Assembly: GCA_016840465.1 (NCBI GenBank)
Contig: JAEOSH010000001.1
Span: forward strand, 88,763-120,762
DNA: 32,000 bases
Source: Candidatus Baldrarchaeum yapensis
Lineage (GTDB): Archaea > Asgardarchaeota > Baldrarchaeia > Baldrarchaeales > Baldrarchaeaceae
Direction: 5' to 3'
Under the pieces are notes generated by a model. The model made no database searches, was not told the origin of the DNA, and was given only the letters and a program-made list of their open reading frames with translations. Within the stretch, counting starts at the first letter, position 1. Each line of letters opens with the position of its first letter. Shown here in pieces: positions 15,329 through 23,077 of the stretch. The translations under genes and the position numbers were made by a program.

Positions 15329-16225
15329 TTACTCCTTACTTACCATTTTTGATATCAGTTCCCACTGCCTATCGACCCATCTCTGTATTTCCTCTATATC
15401 CTCTCTCGTTAAGTGAGAAAATCTTCCCTGCAGCTTTAGGTACTCCTCGACAGGTAGCCTTTTTTCTGGATCCAGCAACGCCTTGCTGGGACCTGTTAAA
15501 CGGAATTTTCCGTCCTCAACTTCATATAGTACCCACATTCCAGTTCTCACCGCCAATCGTGATATTTTCACTGTTAATTTGGAATCAAATCTCCAACCTG
15601 GGGGGCATGGGGCAAGTATATGTATGTATCTGGTCGCGCCACGTTTTTCTTTCGCTTTTTTCACTTTTCTGAAAAGGTCATGCGGGTATCCACTTGTCGC
15701 CGTGGCGACATACGGTATATCATGAGCGATCATTATTCTTGGCATGTTCTTTTTGTGTTCACGCTTGCCGAGAATAGGAGTTGTTGTTGTTATAGCTCCG
15801 TACGGGGTTGCTCCACTTCGCTGGATGCCAGTGTTCATATATGCTTCATTGTCATAACATATGTAAATGAAATCTGTTTGCCTTTCGGCGGCTCCGGATA
15901 GAGCCTGAATGCCTATATCAACAGTACCCCCGTCACCCGCCCATACAAGAACCGTTGCGTCCTTACCTCTCGCCTTCAAGGCAGCAACTATACCTGATGC
16001 TGCCGCTGCTGCAGCAGCAAACGCTATATTTAGAACGGGGATTCCTATTGCGCTCTTAGGATAGAGTCCCATGAAAACGGACGTGCAACACGCTGGAACC
16101 ACCATTATGCTCTTCTTTCCTAGGGCTTTTAACACCCACCTAAGCGCCATTGTCGCACCACAACCGGGACAACTCGCATTACCTGGGTAAAAGTATTCTT
16201 CCAGAGGATACCTTTGTGCCGACAT
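15329..16225 (-). CDS. porB: 2-oxoacid (pyruvate-type):ferredoxin oxidoreductase beta subunit
   Basis: CPGCG, AGDGG TPP motif, YDNEAYMNTGIQRS, PCPPGW. Confidence 0.93.
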   Translation of the reverse strand: MSAQRYPLEEYFYPGNASCPGCGATMALRWVLKALGKKSIMVVPACCTSVFMGLYPKSAIGIPVLNIAFAAAAAAASGIVAALKARGKDATVLVWAGDGGTVDIGIQALSGAAERQTDFIYICYDNEAYMNTGIQRSGATPYGAITTTTPILGKREHKKNMPRIMIAHDIPYVATATSGYPHDLFRKVKKAKEKRGATRYIHILAPCPPGWRFDSKLTVKISRLAVRTGMWVLYEVEDGKFRLTGPSKALLDPEKRLPVEEYLKLQGRFSHLTREDIEEIQRWVDRQWELISKMVSKE

Positions 16226-16227
16226 TT

Positions 16228-17430
16228 TTAATCACCCTTAAGTCCGACCCATTCACAGATGAAACCTTCTTTTTCCTCCTCAAGTGCTTTAAATGCCCTC
16301 ATAAATAATTCAGCCTGCATATCTGGAGTAACGTCTCTTCCTCCGATTCCAACTATGAAATTCATTATTAATGGAGGATTCTTTTCACCGTAGAGCGCTG
16401 CGGCAATATCTGCAGCACTTATCCCGCAGTATCCATAACTCGCATTTCTATCGACTACTACCAGCACTTTTACTCTCCTTCCGATTCTTATGAAGTCCTC
16501 ATATGGAAAGGGCCTGTAAACTCTGAGTTTTACCGACCCGACTTGGTAACCTTGTTCTCTTAACATATCAACGACGTACTTTGCTTGAGCCGCGAGCGTT
16601 CCCATGGATACCATTACGACTTCAGCATCGTTTGTTCTATATTCCTCTACTAATGCTCCATGATATCTTCCGAACATTCTCTTGAAATCATCAGCAGCCT
16701 TTTTTATTTTATCTTTAGCTTTTAGCATTCCTACCTGCATGAGATATCTATATTCCATGTATCCGACTTGTGTGCCTACGGCTTCTGCTAGAACGATGTT
16801 CCCATGAGTGACGGGATTGTCCACGTCACTGATGTCAAACGGAGGCTCATACGGAGGTAAGTACTCTTCAACTTCCTTTTCGCTTAGTACGTGAACCGGT
16901 TGGTACGTATGACTTAGAAGGAATCCATCGCCACATACCATTGCTGGCATTCTCACCTCCGGATCCTCAGCAACCCGGTACGCCTGTATTATTGTGTCAA
17001 AGAACTCTTGGTTACTTTCAACGTAGAATTGAATCCAGCCAGTGTCCCGTTGTGATAGACTATCTATATGATCCGGCCATATATTCCATGGAGGCCCCAT
17101 TGCTCTATTTATAACCGCCATAACAATAGGGAGCCTCGCCCCCGCTGCCCAGTGAAGCATCTCATGCATATAGGCAAGTCCATGCGCGGAAGTTGCTGTA
17201 AACGCACGTGCTCCTGCTGCAGACGCGCCGATACATGCTGCCATTGCGCTGTGTTCGGACTCTACTCTCACGTACTCGCACTTCATTTCTCCCCTCTCTA
17301 TAAGTTCCGCTATTTTCTCGACAATCGATGTTTGAGGTGTTATAGGGTATGCCGCAACCACCTGTACCCTTGCCGCTTTAGCAGCATAAGCTGCGCTATA
17401 ATTCCCGGTGAGTATCATCACTTCTCCCAT
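16228..17430 (-). CDS. porA: 2-oxoacid:ferredoxin oxidoreductase alpha subunit
   Basis: YPITPQT, ESEHSA, TATSAHGL, DGFLLSH, GGRDVT. Confidence 0.93.
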   Translation of the reverse strand: MGEVMILTGNYSAAYAAKAARVQVVAAYPITPQTSIVEKIAELIERGEMKCEYVRVESEHSAMAACIGASAAGARAFTATSAHGLAYMHEMLHWAAGARLPIVMAVINRAMGPPWNIWPDHIDSLSQRDTGWIQFYVESNQEFFDTIIQAYRVAEDPEVRMPAMVCGDGFLLSHTYQPVHVLSEKEVEEYLPPYEPPFDISDVDNPVTHGNIVLAEAVGTQVGYMEYRYLMQVGMLKAKDKIKKAADDFKRMFGRYHGALVEEYRTNDAEVVMVSMGTLAAQAKYVVDMLREQGYQVGSVKLRVYRPFPYEDFIRIGRRVKVLVVVDRNASYGYCGISAADIAAALYGEKNPPLIMNFIVGIGGRDVTPDMQAELFMRAFKALEEEKEGFICEWVGLKGD

Positions 17431-17723
17431 TCTACTACCTCCCTCTCAACTTTTATTGCGTCATATGGGCACTCCTCAACACACACAAGACAGCCCTTGC
17501 AATAATTGTAGTTTATCCTTGGTCCTTCATCCTTCGAAAAAACTATAGCGTTCTCCGGACAATAAGTCCAACACATGCCACACTTTTTGCACTTCTCATA
17601 ATTAATGACAGGGCGTTCAGCCCTCCACCGACCCGTCATTCCCATAGATCCAGGGCCTGGCCTCGAGAGTGGTGTTGGCGGAATTTCCTTCATCCACTCA
17701 TAGTTCTTCACAACAATTTTCAA
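17418..17723 (-). CDS. porD: 2-oxoacid:ferredoxin oxidoreductase delta subunit (2x[4Fe-4S])
   Basis: TGRWR..P, CKKCGMCWTYCP, CKGCLVCVEECP; TTG start overlaps the porC stop. Confidence 0.92.
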   Translation of the reverse strand: MKIVVKNYEWMKEIPPTPLSRPGPGSMGMTGRWRAERPVINYEKCKKCGMCWTYCPENAIVFSKDEGPRINYNYCKGCLVCVEECPYDAIKVEREVVEWEK

Positions 17724-18338
17724 GGGGACATCACCACCGTCTTTTCATACGCGATACGTGCGGCCTTTGCATTAAGTTCTGCAAGTTCTCCCTCCCATTC
17801 CTTTAATATTACGGATAGCACTGATTCTATCCTGACTATCCCGGTGGCCTTGGAAAAGGCGCCCAGCATTGGTGTAATCCCCGGGTGAGGAAAACCCTCA
17901 CCCTTTGAGGACAGGAATCCCAGCAACCTTCAATCCTAGATCCAAAGCTATTTTTGTGGCGTCTACTGTCGCTATCTTGTACTTTGGGGGAATTCCCATC
18001 TCTAAAAGTTCCTCTGGTTGTTTTGATATGTTAACTACCAGCATTCCCCCATTCCTCAAGCCTTCTAACACGTTTACCATACCGAGTAATGAGGGGTCCA
18101 GTACGACAACTACATCTGGGTTGTAAATTTGGCTACGTAGGTGGATTTTTTTGGAAGATATCCGTGTAAAGGCAGTTACTGGTGCACCTCTCCGCTCCGC
18201 TCCAAAGAACGGAAATGCCTGTACATCCTTATATCCATCGATATATGCGGCCTTTGCGAGAAGTTCTGCTGCTGTTACAGCGCCCTGACCTCCTCTTCCA
18301 TGCCAGCGGACCTCTATAATCTCCACATTTGAGTTCAT
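17720..18338 (-). CDS. porC: 2-oxoacid:ferredoxin oxidoreductase gamma subunit, two exons: join(18338..17905, 17876..17720), 196 aa after splicing
   Basis: HGRGGQG, FGAERRGAPV and VDATKIA in exon 1; MLGAFSKATG and NAKAARIAY in exon 2; spliced junction reads GIPVLN/TPMLGA; 434+157=591 nt. Confidence 0.9.
17877..17904 (-). other. 28-nt BHB-type intron in porC pre-mRNA
   Basis: mRNA sense: UGU-CCUC-AA|A-GGGUGAGG-GUUUU-CCUCACCC-GGGG-AU|U-ACA, a canonical hBHBh'. The intron contains the in-frame UGA and shifts the frame. Confidence 0.9.
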
Positions 18339-18674
18339 AAACTTATCACCTAGCACTCTTCCTTCATTCCCCTATTGGTTGACGTTATTAATTAGTTCAC
18401 CCGATAAGGAATAAATGTTTAGAGGACGAGAAAGGCAATAGTTTTAAACCACTCAAGAGCGGTTGCTGTATAGTTTTCGTCCTTAATAATCAGATTGCTA
18501 ACCTCACTTTATAAGAGAACGAGTAAGAGAGGATATTGAGAATTTGAAAAACGTACATGTTTGGAATCATAACACTCAATCTGATGATATTTAAATGTAG
18601 AGACGTTCTTAATGTTGAATGTGTCATGATCGAATTTCGCCTCAGAACAATATTGACGTTTAGTGGTGGTAAAT

Positions 18675-22885: not shown

Positions 22886-22979
22886 GCCGCCGTAGCTCAG
22901 TTGGTAGAGCGCCGGACTGCCGTTTAGGTCCGGAATCGTAATCCGGCGGTCCCGGGTTCAAATCCCGGCGGCGGCTCCA
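22886..22979 (+). tRNA. tRNA-Thr(CGT) with 18-nt intron at position 32/33 (22918-22935)
   Basis: GCCGCCG/CGGCGGC, U73, CCA; strict BHB with CCGG 22912-22915/22930-22933 and bulges ACT and AAT; spliced loop CU CGU AA. Confidence 0.95.
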
Positions 22980-22987
22980 TCACCCGT

Positions 22988-23077
<90 letters not shown>

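Follow-up and report, generated by a model that had tools for sequence, protein, structure and literature searches.

The first gene of an oxidoreductase operon is broken into two frames

The window, the whole stretch of 32,000 nucleotides of contig JAEOSH010000001.1 analysed here, carries on its minus strand a tight four-gene operon in the order gamma-delta-alpha-beta, which profile searches identify as a 2-oxoacid:ferredoxin oxidoreductase of the pyruvate/2-ketoisovalerate family. The delta subunit, a 2x[4Fe-4S] ferredoxin-like protein recognised by TIGR02179, is encoded at 17418..17723 and starts with TTG, the alpha subunit, recognised by its profile matches, lies at 16228..17430, and the TPP-binding beta subunit at 15329..16225. 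At the head of the operon stands the gamma gene (18338-17720), which runs in two frames, broken by 28 nt at 17904-17877. A Shine-Dalgarno-like GGUGA, read from the sequence at 18346..18350, precedes the ATG at 18338 by 7 nt, and we therefore favour this ATG over the GTG at 18356 as the gamma start. At the other end of the gene, the gamma stop codon and the TTG start codon of delta overlap as TTGA (17723-17720), an arrangement through which the translation of the two subunits may be coupled.

Both pieces of the gamma gene belong to the same protein family. In the Pfam POR profile PF01558, the first piece covers profile positions 1-123 and the second positions 129-173, and in TIGR02175 the two exons described below cover positions 1-125 and 130-175 of 177, exon 1 alone scoring 171.6 bits against a cut-off of 81.1. 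Since only about five profile positions fall around the break, the event is best described as an insertion rather than as a deletion or a rearrangement. Gene callers report the split gene as two products of 152 aa and 68 aa.

The insert lies within a BHB motif

The minus-strand RNA around the break reads ...CCUGU CCUC AAA GGGUGAGG GUUUU CCUCACCC GGGG AUU ACACC..., and forms a complete hBHBh' motif at 17873..17913 (UGU / CCUC / AAA / hairpin / GGGG / AUU / ACA). The outer, or exon, helix consists of 3 bp between UGU (17913-17911) and ACA (17875-17873), and is followed by an AUU/AAU extension past a CC/CC mismatch. The central helix comprises 4 bp, three G-C pairs and one U-G pair, between CCUC (17910-17907) and GGGG (17882-17879). 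It is flanked on opposite strands by two bulges of 3 nt each, AAA (17906-17904) and AUU (17878-17876), and the intron stem h' is a perfect 8-bp helix, GGGUGAGG/CCUCACCC, closed by a 5-nt loop, GUUUU. The central helix, the bulges and the flanking helices h and h' that define the EndA-spliced BHB introns of archaea are thus all present.

Free-energy folding gives an uneven picture of the two sides. The hairpin, the central helix and the 5' bulge dominate, with a pair probability of about 0.88, and the 3' bulge with its 3-bp outer helix is a minority conformer with a probability of 0.2-0.3, because U-A and G-U pairs can lengthen the central helix instead. The fold of the 65-nt region has a z-score of only -1.6. 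The geometry of the motif is strict and its 3' side is weak; EndA would have to trap the bulged conformer or bring it about, an assumption also made for relaxed motifs.

In-silico cutting restores the frame and a conserved asparagine

BHB introns are cut between the second and third residues of each bulge (PMC2738675). Applied to the gamma transcript, this rule takes out 17904-17877, that is, 28 nt or 3n+1, running from the third nucleotide of the 5' bulge through the 8-bp hairpin, with its 5-nt loop, and the GGGG strand to the second nucleotide of the 3' bulge. Exon 1 (17905..18338) supplies residues 1-144 and opens codon 145 with AA; exon 2 (17720..17876) completes that codon with its third base and adds residues 146-196 and the stop codon. 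The join reads CUC AA|U ACA CCA AUG, or L-N-T-P-M, and yields from the ATG at 18338 an open reading frame of 196 aa; the unspliced frame ends after 146 aa at an in-frame UGA inside the insert (17877..17904). The earlier note, made from the sequence of the window, had described the hBHBh' elements, including the 8-bp stem and the AUU/AAU extension, the 196-aa frame opposed to a 146-aa unspliced product, and the TTGA overlap between what it called porC and porD. Re-reading and cutting the minus strand in silico reproduced each of these elements.

The codon created at the junction, AAU, encodes Asn145, which is the Asn of the motif PV(V/L)NTxMLGA, and the predicted peptide across the junction is GIPVLNTPMLGAFSK. 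We aligned the spliced gamma product by MAFFT with 117 intact homologues and with three spliced proteins of the sister genus described below. The comparison with intronless orthologues, which the earlier note had proposed, recovered the conserved motif: no gap occurs from -4 to +6 residues of the junction, and conservation of the N and the T is 80% or higher. With both cuts displaced by one base, Lys or Ile would stand where the Asn should be. Exon 2 is 67-76% identical to the sister-genus orthologues and exon 1 68-70%; with the second exon on a par with the first, there is no sign that it goes untranslated.

The insert is present in independent assemblies of one organism

The possibility that an assembly error had introduced the 28 nt was checked against other data. 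Logan assemblies of two single runs, SRR7051323 and SRR6823441, independently contain the identical insert, and one of them matches the window over 3401 nt with one mismatch. The truncated 152-aa open reading frame is recorded by NCBI, ENA, Logan and JGI alike. No second copy of the insert was found in the organism's own genome, indicating that it is not a repeat element.

An intron at the exact window site was not found in any other organism, either in the sequence collections or in a sample of 150 further genomes from the phylum, in which the gamma frames are intact and encode 184-240 aa. The next gamma homologues share no more than 68% identity and are unbroken. At the 90% level, the protein cluster that contains the truncated frame has only start-codon variants of one sequence as members, a look-up of one such variant gave nothing, and the spliced-length protein was absent from a collection of 5.8 billion proteins, a weak negative. 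The best PorC homologues bear the names Thor-, Hermod-, Loki- and Sif-archaeota, and in one relative from the same phylum PorC is 86% identical to proteins named Thorarchaeota, which agrees with membership of the Asgard phylum. Three of the phylum genomes gave gamma matches with an internal stop. The stop in G013 is located before the start codon, the length of the match in G077 leaves no room for an insert, and G096 is the third such case.

The same architecture marks frame breaks in three further genes

We scanned both strands of the 2.27-Mb genome for strict BHB motifs. To qualify, a motif needed a 4-bp central helix, an outer helix of 2 bp or more, and an intron stem of 7 bp or more that tolerates a single wobble pair at most and closes on a short loop. 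The scan returned 34 motifs versus 27 in a reversed-sequence control, a frequency of about 7e-6 per position. Looser criteria gave 21595 motifs in the real genome and 21591 in the reversed one, together with many spurious joins of open reading frames; since these counts are equal, loose scans are uninformative, which is why the strict definition insists on a short loop and on 7 bp or more in the stem. The BHB motif is not enriched in this genome, and what is non-random is its placement on frame breaks.

When motifs were tested for their ability to join open reading frames, four strict matches fell exactly on frame breaks in recognisable genes and restored conserved motifs. Besides the gamma gene, these are infB, with a 30-nt BHB intron at G000:C67:54628-54657 (REAGGI|TQHIG), a radical-SAM gene with a 29-nt BHB insert on the minus strand at G000:C66:13809-13837 (L132; CNFTCP|WCQN), and a UPF0147 gene with a 29-nt BHB intron at G000:C86:12830-12858. 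The radical-SAM insert splits the CxxxCxxC motif itself, and the downstream piece begins at position 14 of the Radical_SAM profile. All four inserts share one build, with a perfect GC-rich stem of 8-9 bp, a loop of 3-6 nt and A-rich bulges. The reversed-genome control also produced four matches joining open reading frames, none of them with comparable support.

Several other matches from the scan were discarded. At C12:20665-20699, the upstream frame holds a complete NurA domain and the downstream frame could be assigned to no family, which makes two separate genes the probable reading. The match on C55 is an AT-rich palindrome, and those on C30, C61 and C78 have a first exon of fewer than 13 codons and no backing from homology.

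The sister genus carries a different putative intron in the same gene

The genomes examined include one other genus of the same order, which served as the comparison. Its gamma orthologue, 64-70% identical to that of the window, is also interrupted, at another site, between FPFFGAE and RRGAP. Genomes of three species, together with contigs of five more samples, contain inserts of 33, 34, 34 and 35 nt (L030:217-250; L031:1674-1708; L008:1777-1809, minus strand; L124-L128). Each insert forms a canonical BHB motif with the central helix GCAG/CUGC and the bulges AAA and AUA or AGA. Although the lengths differ modulo 3, the same cutting rule yields ...GAE|RRG... in every case, and only this rule restores the frame. 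One of the inserts is in frame and contains a TAG stop, and the others shift the frame. The gene also differs in its surroundings: the sister-genus gamma gene is not upstream of delta, and is found on the opposite strand, past beta and a glycosyltransferase gene.

Between the three species, three pairs of the intron stem are changed on both sides, in a compensatory manner, and in a fourth variant a U-G pair has become C-G. In this comparison of three sequences only, 97.6% of the alignment cells in the stem are paired, versus 22-52% when the 3' partners are slid; the covariation is suggestive support for conservation of the structure and does not amount to statistical proof. From these comparisons, BHB inserts appear to have entered one and the same gene at two sites in the two sister lineages, and selection apparently keeps the inserts excisable.

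As a separate observation, a sample of the source organism (L113, SRR6823441) and one of the sister genus (L130, SRR6823440) come from sequencing runs with adjacent accession numbers, and the two probably share a habitat or a study.

The genome encodes the presumed enzymes for BHB splicing

The genome has two paralogues of EndA, 193 and 195 aa long and both above the PF01974 cut-off, encoded at G000:C56:16145-16384, on the same contig as the window, and at G000:C53:4158-4412. When the sequences are read, the paralogue on C56 has His and Lys at the expected catalytic positions, and that on C53 lacks the His at the corresponding position. The pair would be expected to consist of an alpha-like and a structural beta-like subunit, the pattern of an (alpha-beta)2 enzyme. 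One RtcB ligase is present in the genome, with a score of 609 bits. An (alpha-beta)2 EndA with an L1 loop has been reported in Asgard and TACK archaea and linked to broad specificity (PMC5829648), and the cbf5 mRNA intron has been linked to a hetero-oligomeric EndA (PMC2738675).

The tRNA genes were surveyed alongside. In the window, ARAGORN calls a tRNA-Gly(GCC) of 94 nt at 22886-22979 and a tRNA-Phe(GAA) of 90 nt at 22988-23077, both overlong for intron-free tRNAs. Across the genome it reports only 24 tRNAs, including 11 with introns; many interrupted tRNA genes would seem to escape it.

The interrupted operon may encode a VOR, and an intact operon lies elsewhere

The beta subunit of the window scores 457 bits against the VOR-type model NF008818 and 408 bits against the PorB model NF008819, each with a cut-off of 405, and the alpha, gamma and delta subunits fall below all equivalog cut-offs. 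Close homologues of alpha are named 2-oxoisovalerate oxidoreductase in databases. Judged by these profile scores and names, the window operon is at least as VOR-like as POR-like, and the label porC is uncertain. A second gamma-delta-alpha-beta operon, free of any interruption, is located at G000:C84:16617-19634 (L134:1118-4135, minus strand), and its beta subunit passes the PorB equivalog only. The window enzyme may thus be a VOR, and the C84 operon may be the better candidate for POR.

These assignments bear on what had been made of the interruption. The earlier note, which spoke of a central-metabolism mRNA, held that assembly of POR depends on splicing; a dependence of POR assembly or of central metabolism on splicing is overstated, given a window operon at least as VOR-like as POR-like and an intact operon on C84. 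Its further proposal that splicing is a possible control point is pure speculation, which nothing in the analysis supports. Because an intact operon of the same family exists on C84, loss of the window gamma gene would perhaps be tolerable to the cell.

Weighing a splicing intron against other explanations

We consider it likely, from the motif and the comparative sequence data, that the 28-nt insert (17904-17877) is an archaeal BHB intron inside the coding sequence of the oxidoreductase gamma subunit, the reading that had been advanced in the earlier note and that the comparative and genomic evidence supports well.

The strongest competitor, to which we give a small chance, is that gamma is a recent pseudogene, broken by a hairpin-forming insertion whose BHB shape and frame-restoring length are coincidental, with the C84 operon covering the function. 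The presence of that intact operon, the weak 3' half of the motif and an insert shared by no relative are what one would expect of such an accident. Yet a strict motif that occurs about 7e-6 times per position would have to land where it restores both the frame and a conserved Asn. Exon 2 is free of decay, and the delta, alpha and beta genes are whole and closely coupled. Moreover, coincidence would have to account for the recurrence of the same architecture in essential genes such as infB, and for its reappearance elsewhere in the gamma gene of the sister genus, complete with compensatory changes.

Far less room is left for a translational trick, which we regard as very improbable. The ribosome would either hop, in the manner of phage T4 gene 60, from the GGG at 17903-17901 to the GGG at 17881-17879, or produce two polypeptides by re-initiating at the AUG at 17868-17866. 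The local sequence has features of both. As in T4 gene 60, a stop follows a Gly codon, with a hairpin and a matching Gly codon downstream; the two GGG codons are in frame, the UGA comes straight after the take-off codon and the stem-loop begins at the take-off site, and a GGGGA sits 9-13 nt upstream of the internal AUG. The products, however, fit the family worse than the spliced protein does. Hopping would give ...VLKGITPMLGA, in which the conserved Asn is lost and two residues are extra, at a place where intact homologues are free of gaps, and a protein in two pieces would lack N-T-P. In the radical-SAM gene, the sole intron besides that of the window viewed in this respect, no landing codon matches the take-off codon CCA, whereas the BHB rule covers all four introns from the scan and the sister-genus porC introns as well. 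We judge the likeness of GGG-UGA-hairpin...GGG (17903-17879) to T4 gene 60 to be a by-product of the G-rich stem. Finally, an assembly or sequencing artefact, with the 28 nt absent from the organism's DNA, is extremely improbable even for a metagenome-assembled genome of 100 contigs, since two Logan assemblies hold the identical insert, one of them all but identical to the window over 3401 nt, and four sources give the same truncated frame.

Discussion

From the motif, the restored frame and conserved residue, the enzymes and the recurrence, all of which are observed, we infer that the gamma RNA would be cut and joined. The gamma-delta-alpha-beta operon would be transcribed as a pre-mRNA in which 17913-17873 would fold into the hBHBh' structure. 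A heteromeric (alpha-beta)2 EndA would cut between nucleotides 2 and 3 of each 3-nt bulge, and RtcB would join the exons and probably circularise the 28-nt intron. Translation of the spliced mRNA would produce the 196-aa gamma subunit, with the ribosome ending at the UGA that overlaps the delta start, and the unspliced mRNA would yield just the 146-aa fragment.

In the literature covered, crenarchaeal cbf5 is the one archaeal coding sequence for which a BHB intron has been confirmed, in agreement with the earlier note, which had named its intron as the classic archaeal mRNA intron. The gene has been the sole confirmed endonuclease-spliced protein gene of archaea for more than 20 years (PMC2738675); a 2009 paper found 'no confirmation ... 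for genes other than cbf5' (Yokobori 2009, PMC2738675), papers of 2018 and 2025 cite only this gene, and a 2026 preprint on Asgard tRNA introns leaves mRNAs unmentioned (bioRxiv 10.64898/2026.10.13.758758). The cbf5 and gamma introns have much in common: both are short introns of a coding sequence, built on a BHB motif with cuts between nucleotides 2 and 3 (Watanabe 2002; Yoshinari 2006; PMC2738675), both are associated with an (alpha-beta)2 EndA, and both show lineage-specific gain and loss. They differ in their hosts, since cbf5 encodes an RNA-modification enzyme of Desulfurococcales and Sulfolobales, whereas gamma is a metabolic oxidoreductase subunit of a probable Asgard archaeon. Unlike cbf5, the gamma intron is one of several coding-sequence introns in its genome, and has a counterpart at a second site in the sister genus. 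Splicing of cbf5 has been seen in cDNA; that of gamma is predicted from sequence.

The same motif, size class and presumed EndA and RtcB enzymes are found with the non-canonical tRNA introns of archaea, including those of Asgard (PMC5829648; bioRxiv 10.64898/2026.10.13.758758). The gamma intron is distinguished from these by its mRNA host, in which the motif's exon half is made up of codons and a reading frame must be restored. In eukaryotes, HAC1 and XBP1 mRNAs (IRE1/RtcB) resemble gamma in the spliceosome-independent removal of a short, frame-shifting mRNA intron by a structure-recognising endonuclease. The IRE1 system is a regulated stress switch, and employs a different endonuclease and recognition motif. 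This comparison draws in part on the review PMC13149111, and an RtcB-type ligase takes part in XBP1 mRNA splicing (PMC8718801). What the gamma case adds is a metabolic gene with a putative BHB intron, and the interruption of one gene at two independent positions in sister genera.

A bolder reading, which we put forward tentatively and consider rather unlikely, is that EndA and RtcB routinely splice mRNAs in this order, that the introns at the two sites were gained independently, and that the spliced fraction is tunable. Archaeal transcription and translation are coupled. If the bolder reading were true, ribosomes that open up the hairpin and terminate at the UGA would be in competition with splicing, and the level of the enzyme could be tuned through RNA folding or EndA activity. 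A lineage near the eukaryotic stem would then have actively gained mRNA introns, perhaps regulatory ones. Taken together, the putative introns suggest that a lineage can splice mRNAs with its tRNA machinery as a genome-wide habit and not as a one-gene curiosity. Split genes of this kind are called as truncated or frameshifted, with the result that a metabolic reconstruction built on such a genome counts fewer functional genes than there are. With its pair of introns, the gamma gene would also offer a concrete system in which to study how BHB introns are gained.
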